Positions 9,660-32,657 of a stretch of DNA of 32,657 nt are shown here, one piece after another. Both the position numbers and the translations under genes were made by a program. The DNA comes from Actinomycetota bacterium (lineage in GTDB: Bacteria > Actinomycetota > Acidimicrobiia > Acidimicrobiales > Iamiaceae): positions 1-32,657 of the forward strand of contig JBDZVK010000004.1 of the NCBI GenBank assembly GCA_040255725.1. Reading direction: 5' to 3'. The notes under the pieces were generated by a model, which made no database searches, was not told the DNA's origin, and saw only the letters and a program-made list of their open reading frames with translations. The stretch's first letter is position 1. Every line of letters begins with the position of its first letter.

Positions 9660-9973
9660 GAAGACGGTCGCGACGGGGTGACCGGGCTTGAGGAAGTGCC
9701 GCTTTCCGGTTGTTCGTCGATCGGTGGTCCTGGATGGCGACGAGAGTACCGATGACGTGTGACATCGGGTTCGGGGCGGCCCGGCGGGCGTCGCGGGTAT
9801 GCCCCGCACGAAGTGTTCGGGAGGCCGGACCGCCGCGACCGTGTGCCGATGCCGGTTGCACGATGCGTCGGGCCGGCGGCGACGGGTGAGCATCCTCGGG
9901 TCGGGGTCGCTGGAGCCGGTTGTGGGGCCGGGACGAGCCGGGCGAGTCGATGTTTCGGAGAGCCCGGCAGCTC

Positions 9974-11366: not shown

Positions 11367-12572
11367 ATGGTGCAGCTAGTTTGTCGAGGAATGGAGGAGT
11401 TGGAAGGGGGCACTGGGGTGAACACGAATCCACTCGACGTATTGCTGGAGCAGGTGACGTCACTGACGCGGGGTTCGAAGTTTCCTCGATCCGAATTCGA
11501 GACCTTGTTGCGAGAGAACGCACTTCCCGCTGCGGAGTACCGGAAGCTCCGGGAGGCGCTCGACGAGTTGGGTATCGAGATCGTCGACGCCATCGACGGG
11601 GATCAGGATTCACGGGAGGGCGTCGACGGAACGGATCAAGGCGGATGGCACGCCGATGGATTCGGCGAGTTCATGCGGAAGACCACTCACCGGGTTCTCA
11701 CCTTCGAAGAGGAACAAGCACTCGGAATGCGCATCGACGCGGGACGGCTCGCGGCATCGGCGCTGGAGGAAGGCGCAGGAATCTTTGATGGTCGAGCGCG
11801 GCGTGATTTTGAGCGCCGCGTTGCCGACGGCAAGCGTGCTGAGTCAGAACTGGCACTCCACAACATTCGACTCGTGGTCAGCATTGCCACCGAACTCCGG
11901 CAGCGTACGACTCCCGCTCTCGAATTCGAGGATCTCGTGCAGGAAGGCTATGTCGGACTCGCTCGAGCGGTCGCGAAGTGGGAGTACGCGCGGGGGCTGA
12001 AGTTCTCGACGTACGCGACCTGGTGGATACGACAGAGTCTTCAGCGTGCGGTCGCGAACAGAGCATCGACGATACGTTTGCCGATGCATGTCAGGGACGA
12101 CTTGCGGCGCATCCGTACCGCCGAGTGGACGATGAAGCGCAAGGGGAAGACCGTCGATGATGGAGAGATCGCACGCCATTGTGACCTTCCAGTTGCAACG
12201 GTCACCCGACTCCGATCGATGGGTCGTCCGACGCTCTCACTGGACAAGCTGATCGGGAACCGCTCGGTCTCAGTCGGAGACTTCGTCGCCGATGACGAGT
12301 TCGCCCGGCCGGAACGGGTGATGGAAGACCGGATGGTGCGTCATGAGATCCTCGCGGTCATTGCCAAGTTGCCGGAGCGTGAGTGCGAAGTCTTGCTGCG
12401 GCGCTATGGGCTGACTCCGGGACAACGGGCGGAAACCCTTGAACAGATCGGCCATCGATTCGGCGTCACCCGGGAGCGGATCCGGCAGATCGAAAAGAAG
12501 GCGTTGACCAGACTCCGAGAGGCCCATGCCGGGGAACTCCGTGACTTTGCCGAATCATTGATGGAGGTCTGA
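11367..12572 (+). CDS. Sigma-70 family RNA polymerase sigma factor with regions 1.2, 2, 3 and 4 (group 1/2-like, not ECF)
   Basis: Region 1.2 is LTFEEEQALGMRIDAG; region 2 is NIRLVVSIA...FEDLVQEGYVGLARAVAKWEYARGLKFSTYATWWIRQSLQRAV. Region 3 is STIRLPMHV...LSLDKLIG; region 4 is LPERECEVLLRRYGL...LEQIGHRFGVTRERIRQIEKKALTRLRE. An alternative start, GTG 11418, is preceded by GGAAGGGGG. Confidence 0.9.
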   Translation: MVQLVCRGMEELEGGTGVNTNPLDVLLEQVTSLTRGSKFPRSEFETLLRENALPAAEYRKLREALDELGIEIVDAIDGDQDSREGVDGTDQGGWHADGFGEFMRKTTHRVLTFEEEQALGMRIDAGRLAASALEEGAGIFDGRARRDFERRVADGKRAESELALHNIRLVVSIATELRQRTTPALEFEDLVQEGYVGLARAVAKWEYARGLKFSTYATWWIRQSLQRAVANRASTIRLPMHVRDDLRRIRTAEWTMKRKGKTVDDGEIARHCDLPVATVTRLRSMGRPTLSLDKLIGNRSVSVGDFVADDEFARPERVMEDRMVRHEILAVIAKLPERECEVLLRRYGLTPGQRAETLEQIGHRFGVTRERIRQIEKKALTRLREAHAGELRDFAESLMEV

Positions 12573-12578
12573 TTCGAG

Positions 12579-15639: not shown

Positions 15640-16500
15640 GTGGAGGTCCCCTCTATCATGCGCGCGTTCGACCCTGAAGTGATGGATGCGGTGTGGGCAG
15701 CAGTCGAAGGGCTGATTCCTGAACCCGTGGAGACGCACCCGTTGGGTTGCCATCGGCCCCGGGCATCGGCGAAAGCTTGTTTCAAGATGATCCTGGTGCG
15801 TCTGGTGACCGGGTGCGCCTGGGTTGACGCGGAGTTCCTGTGTGACCGGGAGGTGTCCGATACCACCGCTCGTGCCCGCCGTGACGAATGGATCGCAGCA
15901 GGGGTGTTCGACCGGTTGATCGACGAGGCACTCGCGGGTTACGACCGGATCATCGGGCTGGCTCTCGCCGACGTGTCGGTGGACGGTTCGTTGCACAAAT
16001 CCCCTGCTGGAGGTGGGGGAACCGGACCGAACCCGACCGATCGCGGCAAACTCGGCCACAAGTGGTCGATCCTCGTCGACGAGAACGGTGTTCCGTATGG
16101 GCTGGCACTCGCGGGTGCGAACCGGAACGATTCGATCCTGCTCGAACCCACTCTGGACGACGCCGCGAGGCGCGGTCTGCTGCTCGACACCGAGACGATC
16201 TGGTTGGATCGCGGTTATGACTCGAAAGCCACCCGCGACCGGCTCGATGCCCGCGGGCTGACCGACGCGATCATCGCGAGGAAACGACCGCGTGGGGCGG
16301 CCAAGAGTCCGACACCGAAGCTGCCGATGGGCCTGCGATGGCCAGTTGAACGCACCAACTCGTGGCTGTCGAACTTCGGGCAGCTCCGCCGGAACACCGA
16401 CCGAGACCAGATCCGGCGCCTCGCACAGTTCCAACTCGCCATCGTATTCCTGCTCACCGCGAAACTCATCGACTGGAAAAACCGCTGGTCACGGACCTGA
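15640..16500 (+). CDS. IS5-family DDE transposase (DUF4096-type N-terminus + DDE_Tnp_1)
   Basis: 286-aa ORF with GTG at 15640 and an alternative ATG at 15658. Characteristic stretches include AVWAAVEGLIPEP...HPLGCHRPR...FKMILVRLVTGCAW, and the DDE-region motifs VSVDGSLHKSP, WLDRGYDS and VERTNSWLSNFGQLR. Confidence 0.9.
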   Translation: MEVPSIMRAFDPEVMDAVWAAVEGLIPEPVETHPLGCHRPRASAKACFKMILVRLVTGCAWVDAEFLCDREVSDTTARARRDEWIAAGVFDRLIDEALAGYDRIIGLALADVSVDGSLHKSPAGGGGTGPNPTDRGKLGHKWSILVDENGVPYGLALAGANRNDSILLEPTLDDAARRGLLLDTETIWLDRGYDSKATRDRLDARGLTDAIIARKRPRGAAKSPTPKLPMGLRWPVERTNSWLSNFGQLRRNTDRDQIRRLAQFQLAIVFLLTAKLIDWKNRWSRT

Positions 16501-18087: not shown

Positions 18088-20040
18088 TCAGCCGCCATAT
18101 GGTTCATACGTTTCGTCATCAGATCGTTCTCCATCGGTTCGATGTGGAAGACGGATTAGACGGTCGTCGGGTGTAAGCGTCGCGACGACTGCGTCGGCCG
18201 CGAAGGCTGGCACGTCGTTATCGAGAGCGATGACCTGTAGACGCCCGGCGTACTCCTTGGTTTCCTCCAGGAGAAGCTTGTAGGTGTCATCTCGCCGAGC
18301 TAAGTCAAATCCTTCGCTTCCCACGTTGTTTGATAGGCCATCCAGTACAAGCAGCGAGGGCAATGGGAGGTTATGGTCTAAGGATACTGTGTGATGAGCG
18401 AGCGCGTGCGCGACGTTAACCAGGACCGTGAGACCCTGGCTGGAGAGTTCGTCGAATGGTCGGCCGCTTACTTCGGGCAAATAGCTCGTTCTATTGATGG
18501 CGGCGGTAAGTGGCAGATCCGACAGTGATACGTGAAGCCTTTGCAGGTAGTCCACGAATCGAGCTTCTAGATCGGTCAGCAGTTGTTCGGACCGATCGCT
18601 CAGTCGTTCATGCTGAGCGAGGGCGTCCATCAAGTCGGCCCGCTTTTCCTCGAGGGCGACGAAGTGCCCTTCAGAGTCGGCGTACCGGGCGAGCAGCTGA
18701 CGATACTCTCCGAGCTGCTCGATGCGGCCTTCAAGAGTTGCTCGCTGCTGCGCAGCGATGACCATCGCCTCTGATCGCTGTGAGACGAATTCGGCGGTGC
18801 GGCGATCAAGTTCCGCGTTGGCGGAGGATGTCTCGTCCCGAATCTGATCGCATTCGGCCTTCAACGCGGCAAGCTCGTCTCGCCGAAGTTCGATGAGCGA
18901 CTGGGTCTCTACAATCTGGCTGGCGATCCGCTCCTGTTCCGCGACGAGCTCATCACGGTGGTTCCCCTGCTGCGGCTCTTGCAGGCAGAGGTAGCAGTGT
19001 CCATCCGCTGAGCGTGACGCCTCAACTCCGGTGCCACATCGGGGGCATACCACGAAGTCAAAATCGACGAGCCACTCATCTGCAACGATCGCCCGCGTGA
19101 GCCGATCGGACTGAGTCATGAGGGTCTGATGGAGTTCGTTCAACTCCAGAAGGTTTCGGGAGGCCGCGCGTTCAGTAGCCGTTGCCGATGCCAGGGCATC
19201 TTCGAGCCTCGCGACCGTGTCGCGAAGCACCTGACTCTGCGTTTGCTCAAGTCCCTCAACCGCTGCTGTCTTGACCCTCGTGTCAAGATCCACGATCATT
19301 CTTTTGGTCAGTGCAACTTGCTCATCGATGTCGTCGAGGCTGGCGAACGGGGTGTCCTTCAGAAACATCCGAACGGCCTCGTTCGATCTGTCGAGGTCTT
19401 CGAGGCGAAGCTCGACGCTACGAAGTCGTGCTTGGAGGGCGGCGGTTTCTGTGTCGTAGATCCCGTAGTTCAGTTCGAACACGGCCCGCCGCTTCCTGTC
19501 CTTGTACGGGTCTCGATGCCCGAACACCGTGGTGTCGATCTCGTCGTCGCGAACGATGCAGTAGAGCAGCCAGTCATTGATCGTGACCGGCGACGCTTCG
19601 CTCGTTGCCTGAGTGCGCGCCCTGGGGACTGCGACTGCGGGAATGGCAAGGCGATCGAGTAGCCACTCGATGTACGTCTCCGGATCCGTCGCGGTGGGGC
19701 GCTCTGCTGGAAGCCGGAGCGTGTCGATAATCCGTTCTGGCTCCCCGTCGTCGCCAGGCCCCCGGCGACTCAGCGAGACCATTGCGGTCTTTGTAGTGAC
19801 GAGAGGTCGATCGATCTCCCACATGCTTTCGCCGAACGACACTCGCCCGTGGACGGATCGGACTGAGCTTGTCTCGGGCGGGAGGTGTTCAGGTACGCGA
19901 CCAAGCAGCGCCCGAATGAGTCTGACGACGGTTGTCTTGCCCGTGGTGATGGATCCGCTGATGACCGAGAAGGCACCAGCGAAGTCGATGGTGCGATTGC
20001 CGCCGACAAGGTCGATGCGGTGAAGTCGAATTTCGTGCAC
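18088..20040 (-). CDS. ABC/SMC-like ATPase with a long coiled-coil insert and central 4-Cys zinc hook (ABC-3C system ATPase)
   Basis: The N-terminal head has Walker A GSITTGKTT. A heptad-rich helical region of roughly 300 aa contains CPRCGTGVEASRSADGHCYLC. The C-terminal head has the signature-like LSSQG and Walker B LLVLDG; the residue after Asp is Gly, not the usual Glu. Start is GTG 20040, preceded by GAAGAAGGGA. Confidence 0.8.
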   Translation of the reverse strand: MHEIRLHRIDLVGGNRTIDFAGAFSVISGSITTGKTTVVRLIRALLGRVPEHLPPETSSVRSVHGRVSFGESMWEIDRPLVTTKTAMVSLSRRGPGDDGEPERIIDTLRLPAERPTATDPETYIEWLLDRLAIPAVAVPRARTQATSEASPVTINDWLLYCIVRDDEIDTTVFGHRDPYKDRKRRAVFELNYGIYDTETAALQARLRSVELRLEDLDRSNEAVRMFLKDTPFASLDDIDEQVALTKRMIVDLDTRVKTAAVEGLEQTQSQVLRDTVARLEDALASATATERAASRNLLELNELHQTLMTQSDRLTRAIVADEWLVDFDFVVCPRCGTGVEASRSADGHCYLCLQEPQQGNHRDELVAEQERIASQIVETQSLIELRRDELAALKAECDQIRDETSSANAELDRRTAEFVSQRSEAMVIAAQQRATLEGRIEQLGEYRQLLARYADSEGHFVALEEKRADLMDALAQHERLSDRSEQLLTDLEARFVDYLQRLHVSLSDLPLTAAINRTSYLPEVSGRPFDELSSQGLTVLVNVAHALAHHTVSLDHNLPLPSLLVLDGLSNNVGSEGFDLARRDDTYKLLLEETKEYAGRLQVIALDNDVPAFAADAVVATLTPDDRLIRLPHRTDGERSDDETYEPYGG

Positions 20041-20057
20041 GTCGGTCCCTTCTTCGG

Positions 20058-20597
20058 TCAGTCGACGGCTGCGTGCCAGTTGGCGTTGGTCATCTCAGGA
20101 ATCGCCTCGTACAGCAGGTTCTTGAGTGTGGAGCCGCTTAGGTCGAGGTGCCGTCTGACCAGGATCGCTCGATGGTTCACCGCTTCCCAGGTCTCGTCAT
20201 CCAGGATGGATCCGACGAGACCCCGCCCGCGATCGGTCACTCGGTAACCGATACCATGTTTGAACGGGATGGGCTCGACGAGCCCCCGACCGATGAGGCT
20301 GCCGAGAACCGCATAATAGGACGGGTCCCGCGGACCGTATCGGTAGCGAATCATTTTGTCTTGCAGTGGTGTCGGTTCAAGCACGACCGACGCAACGATC
20401 TTCGCCGAGACGTTTCGGTTTGCGAGCACACGCGCGAGGTACTTCGGGTAGCGAACGAGGAAGTCCAGCTTCGCGAGTTTGAGGCGCCCCTCGAGTTGCC
20501 TCGGTTTTTCGACTTTTCCGCTGAACGCGTTGATGAGCAGGAGCACGCGTCCTTCGGATTCCGGCAGGGACCGGAACTTTGTCAATCGATCGGTCAT
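20058..20597 (-). CDS. ABC-3C middle-component candidate (179 aa)
   Basis: ATG 20597 (MTDRLTKF...) overlaps the effector stop as ATGA (20594-20597), and the gene ends 17 nt before the ATPase start. Its size and position between effector and ATPase match the ABC-3C layout; I cannot verify a specific family motif. Confidence 0.5.
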   Translation of the reverse strand: MTDRLTKFRSLPESEGRVLLLINAFSGKVEKPRQLEGRLKLAKLDFLVRYPKYLARVLANRNVSAKIVASVVLEPTPLQDKMIRYRYGPRDPSYYAVLGSLIGRGLVEPIPFKHGIGYRVTDRGRGLVGSILDDETWEAVNHRAILVRRHLDLSGSTLKNLLYEAIPEMTNANWHAAVD

Positions 20598-21814
20598 GCC
20601 GACCGCCACTCGAACAGGCACCGATCCGACAGCTCACACACTAGGCCGAGTACGAGCCCACCATCCTCGTCGAGCACGCAGTCGCTGTCCAACGCTCCAA
20701 GCAGGCCCGTCTGTTGGACGAGCCTGCCGTAGATGACTTCGGCCGGCCGTCCCGCTTGTGCGCTTCCGGCGGAAGACCCGACGACGTCAGCGGTCACGGC
20801 GTCAGCGTGTTCGAGCGCTCTGTCCTCGAGAGCGACGAGCTCGTCGTCGACGTCGCCATCGAGCGTCGCACGTTCCGCTAGCCGGATGGCTGTGACTGAC
20901 CGACGTTTCTGCGCTCTGGTGATCGTCTTTTCCTCAGCGCCGGCGACTCTGAGTTTCCACTCCAGATCGGTCATGGCCAACGCTCCGCCGTTTGCCGCTT
21001 CGAGAAGGCGACGCTGCTCTGCCGCGAAGATAGGTACGGGTGGAAGGATCGAGAGGAGCTCCGCCCTGGACAACAGGTGTTCCACAACGGTCTCCTGCTC
21101 CTCAGTGCCTGGGCGCGGCTGAAGAGCCAACGGATGCTCCGGGTCTGCAGAAGCCACCGATCCCAGATGAGCAGCGATCACGCGTGCGAGGAGCTTGTCG
21201 TAGACGTCCTCAATGACCGAGGTGTGACCAGGAACGAGCTTCATCAAGAGCCGGTGGGTGACAGCGTCAATGGAAGCGCGGGAGTAATACTGCGGGGAGA
21301 TTGTCAGCCGGCCGAGGAAGTCAGCGATGTCGCCGGCTGCCAGACCGAGTGCCCTTAGCTTCTTCTTCTGGTCGTTCGTGGCTTTGGAAGGGGTAGCGAA
21401 GAACGTGCGCGTCTCGGGCCGTGTCCCTTCTGGTCCCTCGAGAATGAGCTCGAGTCGAGTGGAGACAGCGACACCGGCCGCCTTCGCGAGCTTGTACGAG
21501 CGGACGAGGGCATCGATTCCACCGCCGTCTTCAAGGACCTTCGCTTGGGTCCAGGAGCCCCTGTCACGCGTCTTCACCTGTGCGAAACAGAGCTCGGTGC
21601 TGGTCGACGTGGTGATGTCGTCGACGAACTCGCATAAGATGAAGGCGTCGGCACCGAGATCGAGCGTCTTGAGCCAGCGCTGAACTCCGACTTTGCACTG
21701 GTAGATGTATCGGGCGAACGTCTCGCTTCCGCTCGTGTCGCCCGGCCCCAGCTCGGCGAGCGCGTCCATTGCACGGACGTGTGGGGACTCCTCACCACCT
21801 GGCGTCGTAGTCAT
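20594..21814 (-). CDS. ABC-3C effector: Cap4-type dsDNA nuclease domain (DUF4297, PD-(D/E)xK) plus a helical C-terminal domain
   Basis: The N-terminus GSETFARYIYQCKVGVQRWLKTL...AFILCEFVDDITT...FAQVKTRD matches the DUF4297 pattern (G..G..YQ ... E..DD ... QVK). The ATG overlaps the stop of the upstream ORF (ATGA at 21811-21814). Confidence 0.7.
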   Translation of the reverse strand: MTTTPGGEESPHVRAMDALAELGPGDTSGSETFARYIYQCKVGVQRWLKTLDLGADAFILCEFVDDITTSTSTELCFAQVKTRDRGSWTQAKVLEDGGGIDALVRSYKLAKAAGVAVSTRLELILEGPEGTRPETRTFFATPSKATNDQKKKLRALGLAAGDIADFLGRLTISPQYYSRASIDAVTHRLLMKLVPGHTSVIEDVYDKLLARVIAAHLGSVASADPEHPLALQPRPGTEEQETVVEHLLSRAELLSILPPVPIFAAEQRRLLEAANGGALAMTDLEWKLRVAGAEEKTITRAQKRRSVTAIRLAERATLDGDVDDELVALEDRALEHADAVTADVVGSSAGSAQAGRPAEVIYGRLVQQTGLLGALDSDCVLDEDGGLVLGLVCELSDRCLFEWRSA

Positions 21815-24036
21815 TCGAATTCGGTGGAGTGGGCGTTGAGGTTGGTGGCGTTTTCGGAGACGATGCGGACGGTGGCGTCGTCGTAGCCGTCGGGGTTGGT
21901 AGCTCGGATCTCCAGGTCAAGCTGGATGTCGGGGCCGAGACGTTGGGTGACGTGTTCGAGGATCTCGCTCAGTTGCTTGATCGCTCGCACCGAGTCGAGG
22001 GTGAACTGGGCGTAGAACTGGGTCTTGCCCGTCCCGGCTCCGGACGCGCCCGCGGGCGCGTCGCCCGGGCTCCCGGCGGTGCCGGGTGTACCGGCGCCAG
22101 CTGCACCTCCGGCGAGGGTTGCCCCGGCACCCGCGCGCGAACCTCGTCCGGACCCAGCCTCACCTGAGCCGGCTGTTCCGTCACGTCCGGAGCCTGCGCC
22201 GTTGACGCCGCCGTGGCCACCGCCTGAGCCGTCGGCGCCGCCGTCACCGCTTCCGTCGCCCGCAGCGGGTTTGGGGACGGCTGATGGCTCGACCAACAAC
22301 CCGCTCACCACGGGGGTGACGTGTTCGCCGGTGTGGATGCCTACCCAGGTGTCGCCGTCCCACGCTTCGGCGTAGGCGAAGGTTTCGGCGGCCCAGTCGA
22401 GGCTGGACGTTCCGTCGCTGATCGCACCACGCAGCACGTCGAACGAGGCCAATCGGGGCATGTGGGGGTAGCGGGCGTAGCCGTTCCACAGGTCGCCGAC
22501 GGCCAGGTCGCCACGCTCCGACCACAACGCGTACCGGTCGATGTCCATCTTCACGCGCACCCCGCCGTACACACCGATGAGCTTCTCTTCGGTGGCGAGT
22601 TTCTTGGAGACCCGGTCGCCGATGTCGCCGGTGGTGCCGACCTTGGTGGTTGCCCAGGTGATCTCAGCGGTGCCGGGTTCCTGAGCAGGGGTGAGTGCCA
22701 TCGTGAACGTCTCGGCGATCAGCGCGTCGACCTGCTGGGACACCTTGGTGATCTGCGTCCGAGCGAGCTTCTGATTCGCGGGCGTCAGATTCAGCGCGTC
22801 GGACTCGTCCAGGATCGACTGCCACGCCAGATACAGCCTCGAAGCGGCCCGCAGGTCGGCCAACCGGTTCGCTGCGGCAGCAACGAACACCAACAGGTTG
22901 CGGTTCAGTCGTGGCCCGGCGTCGCGCTGGTTCAGGATCGACGCAGCCAGCGAAACCGCGTCAGAGTCGGAAGAGTTCCGGTCGTGGGTGACCTCGGGCG
23001 TGAGGATCACCAGCCGGACACCGTCGTCCTCGTCGGGCACGTCGCCGGGTCCGGCGGCGAAGACCTGCACGGTGGTGAACGCACCCCGGCCGCGCTGCGC
23101 AGCCAGGCGGGCACGCACCTCGTCATCAGCATCGTGGTCGGTGTAGTTCGATGCGGCGCGGTCCGCCGCCAGTCGGGTGGCGTTGGGTTGCAGCGAGAAC
23201 CGGTACTGCGCCCCGTCCACATAGAGATGCGTCGCCTCGTCCGACAGGCGCTTCAAAGCGTCGGCGAACTGGCCGGTCGGCTCGCCGGGCTGCACCGAAC
23301 CCAACACGACCCGCTTGATGTCGACCCCACGGCCCTCATCGGCATAGGGGGCCGATCCCATGTACACGGTGCGGGCGGCCCGTCGGCATGCCGAGATTCG
23401 TCCGAAGTGTTTGTTGTCCTTGTCGATCCGCAGCGGCAAGGCGTTCTCGCCGTCCACGTCGGATTTGATGACCGGGTCCCAGCCTTCTTCGAGGTACTTC
23501 TTCATCTCGGACACGAGCGCACCCGAGTCCATGGGCAGGTTGCCGGGCATGATCAACAGCGACTGGTCGCCGCGCTGCCAGAGCTGGGAGATGGCGATCG
23601 CCATGAGCCGCAGCACCCCGCGGGTGCGTTGGAACTTGTCGAGCGCGGACCAGTCGCCGAACAGCCGGTCGAACAACTCGGAGTGGATCGGATACGACAG
23701 TTCCATCCGCCGCCGGTACTCGGCCTCGCCGACCCCGGAGGGAAACACCCGGGCCTGGTCGTGGTACATCTCCGAGAACGCCCGGATGACCCCGTCACGG
23801 ATCCGGGCGTTGCCTTCGGGGGTCGGGTCGAACAGACGGCGGCGCACGATCTCGAACGACTCGTCCGGTGACGCGGGCTGCCATTGCGCGGCTTTGCGGG
23901 TGACGACGTTCTTCAGCTTTTCCAGGGCGTCACGGCCCCGGTCGCCACCGACTTCGATGTCCGACGCGGGATCAATCCTCGGCGGGGTCTGTCGTAGACT
24001 CGCGCTCGTGTTCGATCTGTCGGAGTGCCGGAGGCC
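21811..24036 (-). pseudogene. 5'-truncated DUF499-family (BrxC/PglY-like ATPase) gene lacking the P-loop N-terminal domain
   Basis: The ORF track gives 21811..23847 (GTG start), but the frame stays open and protein-like up to the stop at 24037-24039: ...IEVGGDRGRDALEKLKNVVTRKAAQWQPASPDESFEIVRRRLFDP, with no ATG/GTG/TTG. No Walker A is present anywhere. A Gly/Ala/Ser linker precedes the characteristic C-terminus FYAQFTLD...LDLEIRATNPDGYDDATVRIVSENATNLNAHSTEFE. Confidence 0.6.
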
Positions 24037-24075: not shown

Positions 24076-25257
24076 ATGAGCAGAGAACCGTCTAAAGCGC
24101 TGTCGGCATTCTCCGGGCTAGGAGGGATGGATCTTGGTTTAGAAGCTGCCGGCTTTGAGATCGTCGGCTGTATTGAACACGATCCGATTGCGCGCCGGTC
24201 GCTAAAGCGAAACCGAGAGCGTTGGATGCTTCTTGACCCACCGGCGATCGAAGGCGTGGCCGACTCGGTGATGCCTATTGACCTCGGCCTCAAGGTTCGC
24301 GAACTCGCGGTTCTCTCTGGCGCACCGCCATGTCAACCGTACTCGAAGGCAGCGATGTGGAGCGACCATGCGTGGAGCGGCTTTGCGGACGAACGAGCGA
24401 AGCCACTGCTGTCGTTTTTCCGACTTGCTGAGACGTTCCTGCCAAGGGTCGTTTTGATGGAGAACGTTCAAGGTTTTGTTGCGGGACCGCACTCTGTTGC
24501 AGCACGAATTGCGAGTGAGTTTGATGCCATCAATCGACGCTGCTCAACCTCCTACAAGGTAAGCACGGCCATCCTGGATGCAGCCGACTTCGGGGTTCCC
24601 CAGCGACGCCGACGCGCGATTATAACGGCCTTTCGTGACGGCGAGGAGATGATCTGGCCGGAGCCCACGCACCGGAAGGCGCCGACTCGGGCGTGGGACG
24701 CGCTCCATGATGTCAAGGTCGCCGAGCCTGCTCCTGCCATCGGGAAATGGGCAGCGCTTCTTCCAAGCATCCCCGAAGGTTCCAACTATATTTGGCACAC
24801 GTCCCACGGTGGAGGGAAGCCTCTGTTCGGCTACCGAACCCGCTATTGGTCCTTCCTGTTGAAGCTGGCGAAAGATCAACCGTCCTGGACGCTGCCAGCT
24901 CAACCCGGCCCATCTGTCGGTCCTTTCCACTGGGACAATCGACCGCTGACTCCTGAGGAGGCGTTGCGCCTTCAGTCGTTCCCATCCGACTGGTACGCCG
25001 AAGGGACCCGTCGTGAGCAAATCCGTCAGATCGGAAACGCCACGCCTCCATTGCTCGCGGAAGTCATAGGACGAGCGATCCGCGCCACTCTCGGCATCGC
25101 CTCTACTAGCGAGCCACTCATGCTGCGGATCAGCCGAAGGAAGACGATTCCAGCGGCTTCACCGGTCGCCGATGTCCCGGACCGGTTCCTCGACCTGGTT
25201 GGTGATCATCCGGATCATCCCGGTACAGGGGCGGGGCCCAAGCCGCGATCCAACTGA
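24076..25257 (+). CDS. DNA (cytosine-5)-methyltransferase
   Basis: C5-MTase motifs occur in order: I FSGLGGMDLG, IV GAPPCQPYS, VI ENVQGF, VIII QRRRRAII, IX-like LTPEEALRLQSFP, X GNATPP. Confidence 0.9.
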   Translation: MSREPSKALSAFSGLGGMDLGLEAAGFEIVGCIEHDPIARRSLKRNRERWMLLDPPAIEGVADSVMPIDLGLKVRELAVLSGAPPCQPYSKAAMWSDHAWSGFADERAKPLLSFFRLAETFLPRVVLMENVQGFVAGPHSVAARIASEFDAINRRCSTSYKVSTAILDAADFGVPQRRRRAIITAFRDGEEMIWPEPTHRKAPTRAWDALHDVKVAEPAPAIGKWAALLPSIPEGSNYIWHTSHGGGKPLFGYRTRYWSFLLKLAKDQPSWTLPAQPGPSVGPFHWDNRPLTPEEALRLQSFPSDWYAEGTRREQIRQIGNATPPLLAEVIGRAIRATLGIASTSEPLMLRISRRKTIPAASPVADVPDRFLDLVGDHPDHPGTGAGPKPRSN

Positions 25258-25270
25258 AGTGGCAGGCGAG

Positions 25271-26308
25271 TCACAGCAGGGCCTCGATACCGCTGCTCCC
25301 GTCGCGCCAGGTGAGTGTAACGGGGTCCTCTGAACGAAGAGCAAGGCCCCACAGGGCCACCTCCGCGCCCTCCTGGAGGCCATCCCCAAGGTCAGCGGGA
25401 ACATCGGTGACGGTCGCGACACCACCAACTGTCCCAACGTCAACGTGCACCTGAACAGCACTGCGGCCGCCAGCAGCGAAGATGACCGGGAGAGTTACCT
25501 CGCCCCGAATCGACTCGCCCCACCCGAGGCGCTCCACTTCACCTCCAGCGAGCGCCTTCCACGCCGGGTCGCAGCGGCCGACGAACCGGCAGGTGCCGCA
25601 GGCCTCCACGGACGGAGTAGCGGGTTGCTCCCCCGGAGCCAGGTCGTTGTACGCGAGCAGGGCATCGAACGCTTCCTCGATGAGCGGCCGTCGTACCGGA
25701 TCGGACACGTCCACTTCAATCAGCCCATTGCGGAGCGAAAACAATGCGGCGTCGTTGACCTCGACTCCCTGCTCTGTGCTTACCAACCACGCATACAGGG
25801 CGAGCTGGCGAGCATACTGGGTCGATGCCGTACCTTCATCGAGTACGACGCCCGTCTTGTGGTCGATGACCGTCGGCCGCTCTCCAAGGACAAGGAGATC
25901 AACAACACCTGCAATCCTTCCATCCGGGCTCGTCAGACGGTGCTCGGTGAGCACTGAGGCGGGGTCTCGACCATCGACGTAAGCGCGCAGCTCCGGCAGA
26001 CGACGCCGCAGCCTCAGTAGGGAGCGCCGAGCGCTCGGTGCCGCGCGGGGGTCGCCATCTCGGGCGGCCAATTCATCACAGGCCTGTTCCCACGCGTCTT
26101 CGAGTTCCGCCGGTGGGTCGCCGAAGCACAGCTCAATCGTCCGATGGATGGCGGTTCCGAGCAAGGCCCATGGAGAGGGACGCGGGCGCTGGCCTCCAGC
26201 GTGAGTTCCTGCCTGCTCGAAGGCGACTCGCAGCGGGCAGCCGAGGAGACGGCTGAGGAGCGAGGGGGACGCGACCTCGATTGGTCTCGACGCCGGAAGC
26301 GGAGGCAT
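25271..26308 (-). CDS. PD-(D/E)xK nuclease with Cas4/AddB-type four-cysteine cluster
   Basis: The catalytic region is GVVDLLVL...VIDHKTG (D...D-x-K), and QLALYAWL gives the QxxxY motif. The cysteine pattern is one N-terminal Cys (LLGCPLR) plus C-terminal CGTCRFVGRC (Cx2Cx5C). The ATG lies 3 nt after the helicase stop. Confidence 0.75.
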   Translation of the reverse strand: MPPLPASRPIEVASPSLLSRLLGCPLRVAFEQAGTHAGGQRPRPSPWALLGTAIHRTIELCFGDPPAELEDAWEQACDELAARDGDPRAAPSARRSLLRLRRRLPELRAYVDGRDPASVLTEHRLTSPDGRIAGVVDLLVLGERPTVIDHKTGVVLDEGTASTQYARQLALYAWLVSTEQGVEVNDAALFSLRNGLIEVDVSDPVRRPLIEEAFDALLAYNDLAPGEQPATPSVEACGTCRFVGRCDPAWKALAGGEVERLGWGESIRGEVTLPVIFAAGGRSAVQVHVDVGTVGGVATVTDVPADLGDGLQEGAEVALWGLALRSEDPVTLTWRDGSSGIEALL

Positions 26309-26311
26309 CCG

Positions 26312-29300
26312 TCAGCCCGATCGAGCGATGACCCAGCCTGGGCGGCGCTGAAGGTCGAAGGAGCTTACGAATCGGATTGGCCGCCCAGCCCCGCGATCTT
26401 CGGCCTCGATGAGCGCTCGATCCATGCGATCCGTGAGGTGGAGAGCTTCCGGGTCGGAGCCATCGACTGGAGCCTCGAAAGGATGCCGAACGACGACGAG
26501 GCCATCGTCGCCATCAATGGCCCATGCACCGCCGTCCAATCTGATGGCATCGCCGTAGAAGTCTTCGGCGAACGCCTCAGCGAGTATGCGCTCATCGTCG
26601 GCCCATCGGTTGGTGTCTAGCGGCCGGTCGAGGATGAGGTCGAGGAGGTCGCGGCCGAGCCGCCAGTCCAGGAGAGGATGAAAGACGAGGTTCGTGAAGT
26701 CACGCAAGCAGTCTGGACAGGAGGAGTCACACTCATCGTGCGGTGGCTTCGCCAGGTCCAATGCGAACCGGTCGGCTCCCTTGAGTAGCGCTTCGAGCTG
26801 GTCTGGAACCCCCAGGCGCGTGCAGTACCCGGCTCCGTTCTCGAGCGCATCAGCGAGGAACACCTCGACGTGGGTCTGGTCGTCGAGGTGTCGGACCGAG
26901 TAGCCCACGGTGAGTTCAGCCGTTCCGATATCGAGCTGACGAGTCGCCTCCGCTCGGAGGAGAAATCCCAGCGAGTACCAGGCACCGCGGCGGCCCGGAT
27001 CGTAAGGTCGAAGGTCCAAGCCCGGGACCGTTCCGGAGCGACCGACGAGCAAGGCGTCGGTCTGCTTGACCATCCCGATCGCCCCTTCCCATTGCTGGTC
27101 CAATTGCAACTCGCTCCCGACGATCCATGGATAAAGCCGCTTTCGCGCGTCTTGGTCTTTCCATAGATCGACCGAGAGCCACGAGTCTCGGGCGCTGTCG
27201 GGGGCGAACCGATAGAGGCGGCCGCCGTTGTCATTCACGATGAAGATGTCTCCCCGGCCGCTGAAGGCTCGTGCGCTACCGGCATCGACAGAGCGCATGC
27301 TCTCCAAGTCCGGAGCGATGCGAGGTGTGGTGGCCCGGGAGCTTCGCGTGAAGGCGCCCTCGAAGTCCTCGGAGCGGAAGGCAGACCGGAATCCCGTGGG
27401 TTCAGCGAGCGAGAACCCTCCGAACTCCGGTGCCGCAGCAGAGCACTCGTCGCAAGCGACTGGTACCACGCCGTCTCGACGGCGGGCCGTTCCGCACCGC
27501 CGGCAGAGCGTGATCTCCAGCGATCTGCTCAATGGGTCATCCGCGACGACACGTGACCCCGCCGGTCGGTACGCGGCCAAGCCGACGGCCGTGTGGACTT
27601 GCTTGTCTCGGACGGTCTCCGAACTCGGTGCGAAGTCGATCACGGCGAGCTCCAGTTGGCGGTCGACGGTGCCTCCCGGGGGCCACGGGTATGGGCGCTT
27701 CGGATGGCGCAAGAACATGTCGCGCACTCGCGTTGGGAATCCAAACATGGGCAGGACTCCGCGCTCAGCGAGGTGCTGGCTCAGCTCATCGTGAGTACTC
27801 GCGACGGCGATGGCGGCATCGACATCGGCAACGATCGAATCGGGACCCGCGGCGGTGGCCCAGTTGAGCAGGTCTGAACGATCGGCGACGAGGTCTTGAC
27901 GTGCCCGTTTCAGCAGCGCGTCGAGGAGTCGCTCGGTCCCTCCCGCTCCTGCTGCGACCAGGCGGGCGATATCAGATTTGACCGCCGGCCAAGAATTGAT
28001 CGTCCCGAACTCTCCGTGCACCGACTGGCCAAGATCGAAGTCAGGTCGCTCGCCCTTGAGTGCTCGGAATGCATCACGGAGCACGGCAGCAGCGAGCGAC
28101 CGTCGGAGGATCTCCTTGCGGCTGAGATCAATGTAGGGGGAAGGCGGCGGATCGTTCGTGATGCGATCGGGGTGGTGGAAGTAGTACTCGTCGTGGGTGC
28201 GGTCGCGGCACACCGTTAGGGCGAACGAGAACGGATCGCGTCGCCGACCCGCGCGTCCGACCCGCTGCTGATAATTGAAGCGCATCGGTGGCATGTTCGA
28301 CATGACGACTGCACGGAGCGAACCGATGTCGACGCCCGCCTCCATGGTGGTGGTGACGCTGAGTAGGTCAACGCCATCGACCAGCTCGCTCTCATCGTCG
28401 ATGAAGATGTCCTGGAACCGGGCCTGTCGACGTGTAGCGTCCTCGTCGTCGGTCTGCCCGGTGAGTTCCTCCGCGTGGAGCCTGAAGCCGCCGTCGCCGA
28501 GGTTTGCTTGATAAGCGTAGTAGTCGTCTTCAGGTCGCCGGGCTTCAATGGGGGTATCGCTGAGAGGGGTAGTGCACGACGTGCAAACGCCGGCAGCCCG
28601 GTCGAGGTGGCGGCGAGCGCAGCTCGGGCACTCCCAATGCGAGTCCCCAGGAGGGCCGAGGCGGAGGAGGGCGGGTTGCACGACGTGGAATAAGACAGCG
28701 GAACCCCATGCGGACTGGACGGCAGCACCAAGACCGTCAGCGGGGACGTCATGGAGTTCAGCCACCTTTTTCCAGTAGCGGCGAACGTTCGCTGGGGGCG
28801 AGTCGGTCTCGTTCTTCACCCCCTGCAGTCGACGATCGTCACCAAGGATGCGGACGCTGGAGCGCACCACCTCGGCGAAGGTCGCCTCGTCCATACCAGC
28901 CGGGGCGGTTCCCAGGTCAACGACGATCGTGGGCTTGGCGAGAGCGAGGCTCTCCAAGTCACGGCCATTCCCCGAGAAGACGTTGAGTAGGCACTCGCGG
29001 AGCAACGCCTGATCGATGCGGCGGCGAAGTCTGTCGTGCTGAGGCGTTGGCTGGTCAGTTTTGCGGCGGGGTCGGGCACCCGAGGGCCACTCGTACAACT
29101 CGTCCCACCGAACACCGTCCTCTTCCCGCGGAGGTTCTCGATTCGCAGAGGGATCCGGCCCTGCTGGCGAGACCCCAAGGGCCACGAGCCTCATCTCGAT
29201 GGCCATCGCCAGCTCGGACACGGTCCGGCCCTGCTGCAACGACGTTGCGACATCCACGACGCGATCGCGCGCTCCTGGCTCGTCATCCCTCACTGCGTTG

Positions 29301-31708
29301 AGCGCGGCGTGGAGATCGGGGAACCGCGCCTGGATGTCCATCCATGCCGCTCGTGCACCGTCCGAACGATCGCCATCGGCCCACGCCAGTGCCCCATCGA
29401 CATCGACACCCGATCCAGTCACGAGTTCCTCCGCAAGGAGTTCACGTATCAGGTCCTGGTAGTGGCGCTTCTCTAGTCCGGCCGACAGCTTCGCGGCGTC
29501 CTGCCTGCTGTCAGAGAAGAGTACGAGACGTCGAGCCTGCTCCCCAGCCACCCGAAGCTCTCGGACCAGGCTGTCAACCAGGACCTGGGCGAGCTTCTCA
29601 TAACCCGTACCCATGGTCCGAATTGATGACCGGGTTCGGCTTCTGTCGTAGACCGGGCGTTGCTTGAAGATCTCCCAGTCCGTTCCGCACTGGGGACAGA
29701 AGATCGGCAGGGGTGGGATGCGGTCGATCTGGGACTCGTCGACGCCGTTGTCGGATACCTCGAACGTCCATCCGGTCTGCCCCTGCCTCGTAACGTTGAT
29801 CCGCCCACTCAAGTGGTCGAAGGTCGCCGGACGGAACTCGAAGGTGTACCCGCCGCGCTTCCACGATCGCTTGGCAGCGAGATCGTCGTCATCTACCGGA
29901 CGGGGCCAGTAGATCGTGAAGTCACGACAGGTCTCGCGCTCTCTGACTTGGTCCGGGAGGCTGTCGAGGTCACCTAGCTCCGCTACCAGGTACCGATCGG
30001 CGTCGTGGAGGCGTTCACCAGGTTGAAGCGACGGAGCGAGGAAGCCGCCTAGGAACAGGTCACCGCAGGTCTGGCAGTACATGAGCCGGAGCACGCGAGC
30101 GCCGCACTCACAGCGGTGGCGTGGCTTGGACCACAGCTTCCCGACAGTACGGTCTGGGTCTCGGAACCTGTCGTCGACCTGAGGGCACTCAGGGTCGCTG
30201 CAGGCCCAGACGCCATCGATGTTGCGGAAGAACAGGTGCGTGCGAATCCGCGGTGGCGCGCTCGTGGCGTCTTCACTCGACGCCGAGATGGAGCGCAGGA
30301 GGCCACGCATCGGCAGCGATACCATCTCACCGGCCTCTCCCTGTCCGGTTGGGAACAAGCGGTCATCGAGATCGGTGAGGGTCAAGGACCTTCCACCAGC
30401 GGCTGCTGCCAGGACATCTTCTGCACGAGCCTCGCTCAGGAGTCTTGCCGCGTCCTCTGACGTCACGGACTCCGCGGCCGCGAGGTCAACGAAGCGCTCC
30501 TCGAACTCGGAGAGGTCAGCGTCCTCAGGGACAGCCAGCGGGCGAAGCTCGCCCTCGTGGATGTCGAAACTCTCTGGCGATGCTCCGAAGAAGTCGGAGA
30601 GAAACTTCTTGCCGATCTCCTGATCACCCAGTGATGCCGAGGTGGCGATGAACCTGACCTGAGGGGAGTCGGGCTCAAGGCCAAGCAAGTGCAGGAGTTG
30701 CCGGAGGAGGTAGGCGACCTCAGTACCCGAAGTTCCCCGGTACATGTGGAGCTCATCGACGACGACGTGGAAAACGTGGCTCTCGTCCGTTTCGAGCCAA
30801 GTCCGTGTTCGCTCGATCAGTCCAGAGTCGACAGATCGCAGGAGCGCTATGTTCAGCATCGAGTAGTTCGTGATGAGGACATCTGGCGGATGGGCCTGCA
30901 TGTCCCATCGGCTCCTCATCTCCGATCCGTCGAGGCGTGGGACGTGGTACCGGCGATCGTCGCCGTCAACCCGCCTCGACCGTCGCTCGACCTCGTTGAG
31001 GTGACGGCGTAGTCGCTGGAGGGCGTTCGAGTTTTGGGGCCGGCCAGGCACCGGGGTCTTTCCGGTGTAGCGGCCGAAGTAGAAGCGATGTCCGCCGCGA
31101 TGCAAGTCAAGGCACTCCCTTGCTTGCGGGCTGTCGAGCGCGCGTCGTAGGCGCACGAGTTGGTCCTCCACAAGCGCGTTCATCGGGTAGAGGATCAGCG
31201 CCCGAATGCCGGGTAGCCGGCCGGTCTCTGCGCTTCGTTGTGCGGACCACCGTCCCTTGGCTTCCCGCCACCAACTGGAGCCGACGGGCGAACCTCCCTT
31301 CCACGTCGTCGACTCCTCCAATAACGCGGCCACGATCGGGAGAAGGAAGGACTCGGTCTTGCCTGAGCCCGTCCCGGCCGTCACTGCGGTGTTCCGACCC
31401 GCCCGCACGCTCGCCAGGGCGTCGATCTGATGGACGAATACGTCGTCGAAGTCGATTAGGCCGCACTTCGCGAAGCCGAGGAGTTCATCGGGCGCCCCCG
31501 CTCGTCGGAAAGCGTCTTCGCTTCCGAGGCCGGTCAGGGCATAGGCGCGCAGGACCTCGACCCAGGGCTGCTGCCAGGCGCCACCCACCCGGTCGAGGAG
31601 CGCTCGACGCTCCTGCATCACTCCACCCAGTCGGAGCCGATAGGGAGTGTCATAGTAGCGAAAGAGGTCCTCCCGGAGGCGGGTGAACGACGAGGCTGGA
31701 CTTGCCAT
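26312..31708 (-). CDS. 1798-aa DEAH-box helicase with C-terminal DUF1998/MZB domain and multiple zinc ribbons (DruE-like or DrmA+DrmB fusion-like)
   Basis: Helicase motifs: Walker A GTGSGKT (aa 112-118), YPMNALVEDQ, DELH (318-321), ATSASLG, FSDSRQDAA (731-739), TTMEAGVDIG and QRVGRAGRR (1148-1156). CxxC pairs lie at aa 503-548, 1027-1045 and 1402-1422. The C-terminus has NGAGYC...CDSSCPDC...LDWRLGRD (about aa 1624-1686). Confidence 0.9.
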   Translation of the reverse strand: MASPASSFTRLREDLFRYYDTPYRLRLGGVMQERRALLDRVGGAWQQPWVEVLRAYALTGLGSEDAFRRAGAPDELLGFAKCGLIDFDDVFVHQIDALASVRAGRNTAVTAGTGSGKTESFLLPIVAALLEESTTWKGGSPVGSSWWREAKGRWSAQRSAETGRLPGIRALILYPMNALVEDQLVRLRRALDSPQARECLDLHRGGHRFYFGRYTGKTPVPGRPQNSNALQRLRRHLNEVERRSRRVDGDDRRYHVPRLDGSEMRSRWDMQAHPPDVLITNYSMLNIALLRSVDSGLIERTRTWLETDESHVFHVVVDELHMYRGTSGTEVAYLLRQLLHLLGLEPDSPQVRFIATSASLGDQEIGKKFLSDFFGASPESFDIHEGELRPLAVPEDADLSEFEERFVDLAAAESVTSEDAARLLSEARAEDVLAAAAGGRSLTLTDLDDRLFPTGQGEAGEMVSLPMRGLLRSISASSEDATSAPPRIRTHLFFRNIDGVWACSDPECPQVDDRFRDPDRTVGKLWSKPRHRCECGARVLRLMYCQTCGDLFLGGFLAPSLQPGERLHDADRYLVAELGDLDSLPDQVRERETCRDFTIYWPRPVDDDDLAAKRSWKRGGYTFEFRPATFDHLSGRINVTRQGQTGWTFEVSDNGVDESQIDRIPPLPIFCPQCGTDWEIFKQRPVYDRSRTRSSIRTMGTGYEKLAQVLVDSLVRELRVAGEQARRLVLFSDSRQDAAKLSAGLEKRHYQDLIRELLAEELVTGSGVDVDGALAWADGDRSDGARAAWMDIQARFPDLHAALNAVRDDEPGARDRVVDVATSLQQGRTVSELAMAIEMRLVALGVSPAGPDPSANREPPREEDGVRWDELYEWPSGARPRRKTDQPTPQHDRLRRRIDQALLRECLLNVFSGNGRDLESLALAKPTIVVDLGTAPAGMDEATFAEVVRSSVRILGDDRRLQGVKNETDSPPANVRRYWKKVAELHDVPADGLGAAVQSAWGSAVLFHVVQPALLRLGPPGDSHWECPSCARRHLDRAAGVCTSCTTPLSDTPIEARRPEDDYYAYQANLGDGGFRLHAEELTGQTDDEDATRRQARFQDIFIDDESELVDGVDLLSVTTTMEAGVDIGSLRAVVMSNMPPMRFNYQQRVGRAGRRRDPFSFALTVCRDRTHDEYYFHHPDRITNDPPPSPYIDLSRKEILRRSLAAAVLRDAFRALKGERPDFDLGQSVHGEFGTINSWPAVKSDIARLVAAGAGGTERLLDALLKRARQDLVADRSDLLNWATAAGPDSIVADVDAAIAVASTHDELSQHLAERGVLPMFGFPTRVRDMFLRHPKRPYPWPPGGTVDRQLELAVIDFAPSSETVRDKQVHTAVGLAAYRPAGSRVVADDPLSRSLEITLCRRCGTARRRDGVVPVACDECSAAAPEFGGFSLAEPTGFRSAFRSEDFEGAFTRSSRATTPRIAPDLESMRSVDAGSARAFSGRGDIFIVNDNGGRLYRFAPDSARDSWLSVDLWKDQDARKRLYPWIVGSELQLDQQWEGAIGMVKQTDALLVGRSGTVPGLDLRPYDPGRRGAWYSLGFLLRAEATRQLDIGTAELTVGYSVRHLDDQTHVEVFLADALENGAGYCTRLGVPDQLEALLKGADRFALDLAKPPHDECDSSCPDCLRDFTNLVFHPLLDWRLGRDLLDLILDRPLDTNRWADDERILAEAFAEDFYGDAIRLDGGAWAIDGDDGLVVVRHPFEAPVDGSDPEALHLTDRMDRALIEAEDRGAGRPIRFVSSFDLQRRPGWVIARSG

Positions 31709-31720
31709 AGTGCGATCCTC

Positions 31721-32629
31721 TCAGGTGGTGGCCACGTGCTGGAGCAATGCCACGCCGATTCGGTTGGCGAGAAGGCGAGGGACGTTGTGGTACCTCCTCC
31801 ACCCTCCTACGCGCTCCGGAGCCAACCCCGATGACACCGTTGCTGCTCGCTCCACGATGACAGGCAGGGACAGCTCTCGTCGGACCTCGAAGCACGGTGG
31901 ATTGCTCGCGCTGCCCGCGTCCCAGCGAAGTACTGGCTCGGCCCGAGACTTCAACGCGAGAAACTGTCCCGCGGGCAAGTCTGTAGCCCACCAGGAGCCG
32001 AACTCATCGAGACGCCGGTGTACGGGCCGACCATGCAGGTCGATCCGGTAGAGCCCCGGTCGACGTTCGTGAGCGGCGTCCCACTTCAAGGTGGCGGCGT
32101 CGAAACGGAGCGCGTCCTCAAGGGACGGCTCGGGTGCTGTCTCGACGGGCTCCTCGTCCACAGGTATGAGCGCGTCGACAAGACGGGCCGCCGGATCGAC
32201 GACAAGCGTCGCGCCGAGCCTCTCGGCGACCCGTCGAGCCACATCGACCGACGCGCACTTGGCGTACCGAGCGGCCGGCAACGGCGGCTGCTCGGTATCG
32301 AACGGGTAGACGTCCTGATCGTTGGTCGCCTCGTCAAAGCGCCGATCGAGATAGTGGGGGCGGCTCCCCGTCAAGACGACGCAAAGGCCAAGTCCAGGGA
32401 CGAGGTTCAAGGCGGGGGGAGCGATGCTCCATGCTCGCGTCTTCCAGTCCACGTCGAGATGACCGAGTGTTGCGAGATCGGACGCGAGTGTCCAGGGCCT
32501 CCTGCGCAGTGAGTGCTTCTGAGCGACGTACGCGCACGCGTCTCGAAGTCGTTCCCACGATCCCGCCCCAGCCTCACTCGCCCAGCGAAGCAGCTCGTCA
32601 CCCGCTGTCTCTGGAGTGTCGCTTGTCAT
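31721..32629 (-). CDS. Hypothetical 302-aa protein, first gene of the giant-helicase operon
   Basis: The ORF has protein-like composition. Its stop lies 12 nt before the helicase ATG, with GAGGA in the gap. I recognise no family motif. Confidence 0.6.
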   Translation of the reverse strand: MTSDTPETAGDELLRWASEAGAGSWERLRDACAYVAQKHSLRRRPWTLASDLATLGHLDVDWKTRAWSIAPPALNLVPGLGLCVVLTGSRPHYLDRRFDEATNDQDVYPFDTEQPPLPAARYAKCASVDVARRVAERLGATLVVDPAARLVDALIPVDEEPVETAPEPSLEDALRFDAATLKWDAAHERRPGLYRIDLHGRPVHRRLDEFGSWWATDLPAGQFLALKSRAEPVLRWDAGSASNPPCFEVRRELSLPVIVERAATVSSGLAPERVGGWRRYHNVPRLLANRIGVALLQHVATT

Positions 32630-32657
32630 GTAGGGGCCCCTGCGGCAGAGCGGTAGC

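Follow-up and report, generated by a model that had tools for sequence, protein, structure and literature searches.

A Druantia type IV-like locus with a predicted DruK nuclease and a C5 cytosine methylase in an Iamiaceae bacterium

Assignment of the locus to Druantia type IV

Does a giant DUF1998-type helicase, encoded together with a small nuclease-like protein, a protein of no obvious family and a cytosine methylase, form a new defence system or a variant of a known one? This question is raised by a 32,657-nucleotide (nt) stretch of DNA from an actinomycetote of the family Iamiaceae (assembly GCA_040255725.1, contig JBDZVK010000004.1; the entire stretch is hereafter referred to as the window), in which these genes lie at the far end. 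An earlier note, made from the sequence alone, had read them as a module that matches no described subtype. Yet the locus is not undescribed: it belongs to a catalogued system that lacks experimental study and, judging by the profile matches of its proteins, is very probably Druantia type IV with the nuclease DruK.

The dru genes are all on the minus strand. The gene for DruL (302 amino acids (aa), positions 31721-32629) is followed by druE (1798 aa, 26312-31708), encoding a DEAH helicase of the YprA/MrfA family that contains several zinc ribbons and ends in an MZB (DUF1998) domain, and then by druK (345 aa, 25271-26308), encoding a predicted PD-(D/E)XK nuclease of the Cas4/AddB/AdnAB type that has a four-Cys cluster and, at its C-terminus, an OB fold. 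Convergent with druK, on the plus strand, is the gene for a DruM-like, Dcm-type C5 cytosine DNA methyltransferase of 393 aa (24076-25257), which matches Pfam DNA_methylase. These four open reading frames (ORFs) are all present where the earlier note had placed them, and the spacings it gave are reproduced as well: a GAGGA ends 7 nt 5' of the druE ATG, within a druL-druE gap of 12 nt, the druE stop is 3 nt from the druK ATG, and the convergent stops of the methylase gene and druK are 13 nt apart. The operon does not, however, comprise three genes, as had been thought, because the window edge cuts it. A fourth, upstream gene, druF, ends inside the window (32626-32657, minus strand), and its TGA overlaps the druL ATG (ATGA). 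Of druF, no more than the final 9 codons and the stop are included, the remainder lying past the window end; the final 30 nt, read on the minus strand, encode ...YRSAAGAPT followed by TGA, which aligns with the C-terminus of DruF from the closely related locus L001, where ...RYRAAAGTPT* is encoded at the equivalent place. The earlier statement that DruF is missing is explained by the end of the window, 28 nt upstream of the druL ATG. By this reading, the operon is druF-druL-druE-druK, all on the minus strand and translationally coupled.

Protein identity was assessed with the profiles of PADLOC-DB, along with searches of Pfam, NCBIfam and the Protein Data Bank (PDB) and with AlphaFold2 (AF2) models compared by Foldseek. 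Among all DruE models, DruE4 (PDLC00051) is the best on the helicase, with 1926 bits over residues 2-1795; the DruE2 models score 1535-1664 bits, DruE1 599 bits and DruE3 at most 391 bits. The 302-aa protein, previously considered unrecognisable, is DruL: it matches DruL4 (PDLC00057) with 159 bits, residues 9-301 aligning with positions 2-307 of the 309 in the profile, so that a full-length DruL4 match adjoins druE. The 345-aa nuclease matches the DruK profile over its full length (103 bits, residues 12-337), and the top models for the methylase are MTase_II (197 bits) and DruM2 (190 bits). In the PADLOC scan of the locus proteins, there was no match to DruG, and none to DruH was found among the scanned proteins of the window or of related loci. 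Accordingly, the earlier claim that the large proteins DruF, DruG and DruH are all lacking holds for the latter two and fails for DruF, the C-terminus of which is at the window edge.

Druantia type IV has been defined as DruE, DruF and the hypothetical protein DruL, with 168 instances in RefSeq from 11 phyla, and DruK goes unmentioned in this description (Payne et al. 2021, PMC8565338). A phylogeny of DruE recovers four clades that correspond to types I-IV, with type IV accounting for 18% of 566 loci (10.64898/2026.05.13.724313). Because each protein of the locus finds a full-length match among the named Druantia models of PADLOC (DruE4, DruL4, DruK and MTase_II/DruM2), the profiles essentially assign these genes to an already typed system, namely, type IV, and the claim that they fit no described subtype is not supported. 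The other part of the previous reading, namely, a DruE-type DUF1998 helicase in a locus that is neither DISARM nor Druantia of types I-III, agrees with the profile comparison. Neither Pfam nor NCBIfam includes a DruL or DruF model, and NCBIfam also lacks a DruE-specific one, such that the helicase is matched only weakly by generic helicase and DpdJ families; because of these gaps, the locus looked unclassifiable. Thus, the apparent novelty arose from the window edge together with the gaps in Pfam and NCBIfam for these families. Our literature search for DruK and DruL found nothing besides the PADLOC paper.

The helicase, the nuclease and their partners

DruE contains all the helicase motifs noticed previously, GTGSGKT at residue 112, DELH at 318 and QRVGRAGR at 1148, as well as the C-terminal Cys cluster, with seven CxxC pairs including CPDC at 1664. 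Pfam detects the DEAD (56 bits) and Helicase_C (28 bits) domains and supports MZB/DUF1998 (cutoff 24.2 bits), with a score of 22.6 bits when the whole of DruE is searched and of 25.1 bits when the domain is searched by itself. Among proteins of solved structure, DruE matches 9wae_A (E 1e-179), the type III DruE 9tu7_Y (E 1.5e-51) and MrfA 6znp (E 1.7e-15). The closest of these relatives, 9wae chain A (1970 aa, 7 entries), is far nearer than 9tu7 and is titled just “Helicase”; no mention of 9wae was found in the searched literature. A motif search detected no PLD motif HxK(x)4D in DruE, and its last 130 aa have no Pfam match even at E 1. An inactivated Vsr domain has been reported for DruE of types I and II (PMC12458937); the same identity for the C-terminal 130 aa of this DruE was not confirmed by sequence, given that hhalign comparison with seven genuine Vsr proteins from sister loci yielded a probability of 0.1%.

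DruE has no recognisable nuclease domain and, therefore, the cutting activity would be supplied in trans by DruK. The nuclease motifs and the C...Cx2Cx5C cluster previously noted in the 345-aa protein are all there, with C24, DHK at 149, QLALY at 168 and CGTCRFVGRC at 237. Pfam PDDEXK_1 matches DruK with 74 bits; the Cas4 models of PADLOC score at most 39 bits, against 103 for the dedicated DruK model, and the NCBIfam cas4 family (TIGR00372) scores 36.9 bits, under its cutoff of 65. Across 27 DruK homologues, residues E122, D137, D149, K151, Q168, Y172, C24, C237, C240 and C246 are invariant. In the AF2 model (mean predicted local distance difference test score, pLDDT, 89), DruK takes the form of an Fe-S nuclease of the AdnAB/Cas4 type that ends in an OB fold. 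The model matches the nuclease domains of AdnAB (E 1.7e-7), Dna2, Cas4, ACE1, MGME1 and AddAB, with Foldseek E from 2e-7 to 1e-5 for AddAB, AdnAB, Dna2 and Cas4, and SSB-type OB folds are matched by the last 90 residues. The invariant catalytic and Cys residues, together with these structural matches, favour the prediction that DruK is an active nuclease. The possibility that its C-terminal domain is a reader of 5-methylcytosine (5mC), similar to EVE or SRA, was rejected because the model shows an SSB-type OB fold. No core cas genes were matched among the scanned neighbouring ORFs; a MrfA-like helicase encoded elsewhere in the window gives weak matches to Cas3-type helicases.

DruL has no Pfam or NCBIfam match, and its 83 homologues likewise are without any precomputed Pfam domain and bear no functional name (0/83). 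A look-up of the exact DruL sequence of the window returned no record. Structure prediction gave a confident model (pLDDT 92, predicted template modelling score 0.87) that has no significant neighbour in PDB: the fold search returned nothing below E 0.03 other than the best hit itself, a Zur winged helix, at E 0.029 and a template modelling (TM) score of 0.16. The L001 druF encodes 675 aa and matches PADLOC DruF4 with 168 bits and DruF2 with 162 bits. Among the related loci, ~40 include sequence on the 5' side of druL, and nearly all of these have there a DruF gene (~650-750 aa) or what is left of one.

The methylase contains the canonical C5 motifs attributed to it previously (FSGLG, PCQ, ENV, QRR and GNA), matches Pfam DNA_methylase with 152 bits over positions 3-322 of 324, and scores 129 bits, above the cutoff, against TIGR00675 (dcm). 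Compared with L001, the ratio of nonsynonymous to synonymous substitution rates (dN/dS) is 0.13 for the methylase gene and 0.09-0.18 for the dru genes; thus, the methylase is under purifying selection, as the dru genes are.

The comparison with named systems delineates what is shared and what is peculiar here. The gene order druF-druL-druE and the matches to DruE4, DruL4 and, in L001, DruF4 are those of Druantia type IV, and DruK has its own PADLOC model, but this locus, along with the whole sub-clade of DruE to which it belongs, carries in addition DruK and a C5 methylase. Druantia type II was reportedly described by Doron and colleagues in 2018 as DruM-DruF-DruG-DruE. With that type, the locus shares a C5 methylase and a DruE that is closely related, along with DruF as far as its C-terminus shows, whereas it has DruL in place of DruG, the extra trans nuclease DruK, and a helicase on which DruE4 outscores DruE2. 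Type II has also been named “Type IV CoCoNuT” (Bell et al. 2025, PMC12458937). As in type III (DruH-DruE), a YprA-family DruE is accompanied by a separate nuclease partner, and the same logic of action on junctions between single-stranded (ss) and double-stranded (ds) DNA might apply here; however, this DruE lacks PLD nuclease domains, the partner is similar to Cas4 and AdnAB rather than to the 3'-5' exonuclease DruH, and type III has no methylase. DruK shares the Fe-S PD-(D/E)XK nuclease fold and catalytic motifs with AddAB, AdnAB, Dna2 and Cas4, but is a stand-alone protein of 345 aa with an OB fold, not fused to a helicase as in AddAB, AdnAB and Dna2, and, unlike Cas4, has no link to CRISPR genes and falls under the NCBIfam cas4 cutoff. 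A DUF1998 helicase and a C5 methylase are also found in DISARM class 2 (DrmA, DrmB, DrmC, DrmE, DrmMII), where the helicase is split; here, it is unsplit, and there are no equivalents of DrmB, DrmC or DrmE, in agreement with the earlier note with regard to DrmC and DrmE. The assignment to DISARM through DrmA or DrmB was rejected in the PADLOC scan, where DrmA gave only weak local matches (36-43 bits) confined to the helicase C motif, residues 1114-1187, and neither DrmB nor DrmC was found.

Two forms of type IV and the place of the methylase

We compared the locus with 49 related loci, of which 19 came from species-representative genomes, 23 from metagenomes (found with a DruL alignment) and 7 from look-ups of exact proteins; the window proteins were mapped onto these loci by tblastn. 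The closest, L001, is a contig from a metagenome-assembled genome (MAG) of an uncultured Iamiaceae bacterium and is 89% identical to the window at the DNA level in a single alignment (L001 4412-12975 with window 32657-24094). Wherever DruE is at least 44% identical to that of the window, druK directly follows it on the 3' side, and neighbour-joining analysis of 21 full-length DruE sequences places all DruK-bearing loci in one clade. This form was seen in Acidimicrobiia, Solirubrobacterales, an Actinomycetes MAG, Pirellula, and marine and soil metagenomes. L005, which is placed in the clade by its DruE (75% identity to the window), is a decaying copy that has lost druK.

A C5 methylase is encoded within ~3 kb in all 15 of the 15 DruK-clade lineages that could be evaluated; L002, L025 and L031 were left out of this count because their sequence ends too early to judge. 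The position varies: the methylase gene is convergent after druK in the window, L001, L035 and L045, co-directional after druK in L007, L012, L019, L036, L043 and L046, one or two genes further from druK in the L027 group, L044 and L049, downstream of druL in the rearranged L008, and upstream of druF in L003/4, L005 and L047/48. The other form, without DruK, comprises 7-8 lineages from Streptomyces, Spirillospora, Actinomadura, Solirubrobacter, Gaiellales and Dormiibacterota, with DruE only 37-39% identical to that of the window, and in none of these lineages was DruK or a C5 methylase found within up to 10 kb on either side. Thus, the link of the DruK clade to 5mC modification is real, and the view that the Cas4-like nuclease and the C5 methylase belong with the helicase is supported.

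The published example of type IV, a locus of S. pratensis, spans 8628 bp. Taken together, druF, druL and druE have this same length in L009, L010 and L017, which are Streptomyces-like loci without DruK. From this length only, the published example appears to be of the DruK-less form, which fits the published statement of type IV without a methylase. A modest new point is, therefore, that the DruK branch of type IV is monophyletic and linked to C5 methylation in every evaluable sampled lineage, a feature absent from the published description. Tentatively, and with the odds rather against it, the DruK-bearing branch might be regarded as a distinct monophyletic subtype, consisting of druF-druL-druE-druK and a C5 methylase with or without Vsr or a Type II enzyme, whose activity depends on 5mC. 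Should this be the case, the subtype would be either a methylation-guarded split helicase-nuclease or a dedicated processor of DNA ends generated by restriction, and “type IV without a methylase” would be valid for the DruK-less branches only.

Some further observations concern the makeup of these loci. In the DruK-less loci from Streptomyces, Spirillospora and Actinomadura (L009 16404-20900, L010 16419-20919, L014 8458-12956 and L017 16407-20906), druE is followed by three overlapping, co-directional genes, which encode proteins of ~580-600 aa and ~380-435 aa, both without a PADLOC or Pfam match, and an Hsp70-like ATPase of ~530 aa; these may be unrecognised accessory genes of the DruK-less branch. 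L005 and L012 are decaying, with frameshifts in druL and druE; in L019, druF, druL and druE are fragmented, and druK and the methylase and Vsr genes appear intact; in L008, a transposase of the IS481 family lies inside druF. Genes for a TrwC relaxase, a serine recombinase/resolvase and phage-type integrases adjoin L043, L049 and L044, suggesting that some DruK-clade loci are carried on integrative or conjugative elements.

Overall, we marginally favour Druantia type IV acting through a helicase and a trans nuclease, with the methylase as the guard, as the explanation of the locus. In this model, DruE, a translocase of the YprA family moving 3' to 5', would load on ssDNA/dsDNA junctions or free ends of the invading DNA and unwind it, and DruK would degrade the displaced strand in trans, so that the two would constitute a split helicase-nuclease comparable to AddAB, AdnAB or DruE-DruH. 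By analogy, this helicase-nuclease part of the model is probable: the type III DruE is a 3'-5' translocase that is loaded at ssDNA/dsDNA junctions and works with the exonuclease DruH (2026 preprints). DruF and DruL might be sensor, regulatory or scaffold subunits. The chromosome would be spared either by 5mC deposited on it by the methylase, which would protect the host DNA from attack, or by having no free ends; in sister loci, the same mark would guard a Type II restriction enzyme as well. That the methylase guards the Dru machinery itself is plausible, at slightly less than even odds. DruM is a requisite protein of Druantia type II (PMC8565338), and type I puts N6-methyladenine on the host DNA (10.1101/2024.04.14.589459). 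Type IV makes up about one fifth of the Druantia loci and is without experimental study. Its split into one form that always has 5mC genes and the AdnAB/Cas4-like trans nuclease and another form with neither offers a testable handle on how the nuclease-less DruE of types I, II and IV destroys DNA, and bears also on whether methylation serves self/non-self discrimination in these types.

Several lines of evidence weigh against this reading. Type IV is said to lack DruM (PMC8565338), in contrast to the locus described here, where a C5 methylase with 190 bits on DruM2 ends 13 nt from druK; in the 2021 paper, however, the absence of DruM and DruG is descriptive and is not stated as a classifier rule. 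The view of druF from inside the window stops at 9 codons, and the integrity of the gene is beyond it; the roles of DruF and DruL are guesses; and no experiments on any type IV Druantia were found in the searched literature. Furthermore, methylases turn over much faster than DruE (DruE and methylase are, respectively, 75 and 36% identical to those of the window in L043, 75 and 37% in L005, and 69 and 26% in L044), which sits uneasily with the reading of one specific methylated motif by the Dru proteins. Finally, a Vsr gene adjoins the methylase gene in nine lineages, and a recognisable Type II restriction enzyme is encoded next to it in five (PADLOC REase_II in L008, L025 and the L027 group; the EcoRV-like Pfam Endonuc-EcoRV in L043 and L049), so that the methylase may be part of a separate restriction-modification (R-M) cassette. 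One lineage also has an AspBHI/Mrr-like enzyme, and several others have unassigned ORFs beside the methylase gene that are possible restriction enzymes.

The most serious of the competing explanations builds on these last observations and, to our mind, is possible although rather doubtful. The methylase would be the remnant of an adjacent Type II 5mC R-M cassette (the methylase, with or without a restriction enzyme and Vsr) that travels with the DruK-bearing lineage, and in the window and L001 an orphan methylase would have stayed behind after loss of the restriction enzyme; the functional link would then be one of synergy, whereby restriction cuts make DNA ends for DruE and DruK. The decoupling of methylase identity from DruE identity and the presence of several restriction-enzyme families imply that whole 5mC R-M cassettes are apparently exchanged, and, according to the literature, restriction-sensitive phages are cleared by type III Druantia, in the neighbourhoods of which R-M systems are over-represented. 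Against this stands the strict tie of the methylase to DruK, in 15/15 lineages versus 0 of 7-8, with the methylase gene at varied positions, either after druK or before druF and either co-directional or convergent, and invariably of the C5 type, never of the N6 or N4 type. In the window, the methylase gene lies between druK and a truncated gene for HmaC. The block of 89% identity common to the window and L001 extends from the end of druF to 18 nt inside the 5' end of the methylase gene, the flanks beyond being different, and contains no restriction-enzyme candidate, yet the methylase is under purifying selection; Druantia type II, too, has a C5 methylase without a restriction enzyme. The idea of an undescribed methylation-guarded module survives in part: it is not undescribed, being type IV, and guarding is plausible, but in several sister loci the methylase is found in an ordinary Type II R-M cassette.

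The two remaining explanations appear much weaker. The window is a defence island, with a Lamassu-like operon, an HmaC fragment, a MrfA-like helicase, a DUF3800/PDC-M04A gene and an IS4/5 transposase gene, such that Druantia IV, DruK and the methylase could be independent neighbours in a variable island; we consider such a coincidence very unlikely, considering that druK starts 3 nt after the druE stop, that druE and druK are adjacent throughout the DruK clade, from Acidimicrobiia and Solirubrobacterales to Pirellula and marine metagenomes, that PADLOC holds a dedicated DruK model, and that the methylase co-occurs so consistently with DruK. Even less credible is a DNA-repair module of the MrfAB/AdnAB type that is not an immune system, although the MZB domain of DruE is found also in MrfA, a repair helicase (PDB 6znp), and the best structural match of DruK is the nuclease of the repair enzyme AdnAB. 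DruE4 and DruE2 score 1926 and 1664 bits on the helicase, compared to 59 bits, and only locally, for MrfA; the distribution is patchy, sister loci are tied to mobile elements (integrases, TrwC, resolvase, IS insertions), and copies in L005, L012 and L019 decay through frameshifts; the neighbours are R-M and defence genes. We prefer, accordingly, the type IV Druantia reading over both.

The defence island around the locus

Next to the methylase gene, 228 bp from the start of the fragment, lies the 678-aa HmaC fragment (21811-23847, minus strand), which matches the PADLOC profile of HmaC, a DUF499 ATPase, with 503 bits over positions 287-940 of 941, so that about the N-terminal third is gone. 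The homology with L001 ends at 24094, and HmaC may, therefore, have been truncated when the Druantia block arrived. The methylase was considered as a component of the Hma system and rejected: its best PADLOC models are MTase_II, DruM2 and DrmMII, and its gene belongs to the block that is also present in L001, where there is no HmaC.

The stop of the HmaC fragment overlaps, by 4 nt, the start of a LmuA-like gene, the first of a Lamassu-like operon located directly downstream (18088-21814, minus strand) and composed of LmuA-like, with a Cap4-nuclease/DUF4297 domain (20594-21814), LmuC-like (20058-20621) and SMC-like LmuB (18088-20040, 264 bits). On the plus strand, at 11367-15281, a sigma-70-family gene (regions 2, 3 and 4), with a match to PADLOC MzaA in the C-terminal part of that profile, stops 6 nt short of the gene for a 900-aa MrfA/YprA-like helicase with DEAD, Helicase_C and MZB domains, the second DUF1998 helicase in the window. 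A DUF3800 protein (PADLOC candidate PDC-M04A; 8994-10640, minus strand) and a DDE transposase of the IS4/5 family (15640-16500, plus strand) are encoded on either side of this pair. A tRNA scan found no tRNA gene in the window, and promoter-like and terminator-like sites are no more frequent in it than in shuffled sequence. The content of guanine and cytosine is ~0.70 at 1-5 kb and drops to 0.50-0.60 near 15-19 kb, suggesting that the window is a mosaic, horizontally acquired island.

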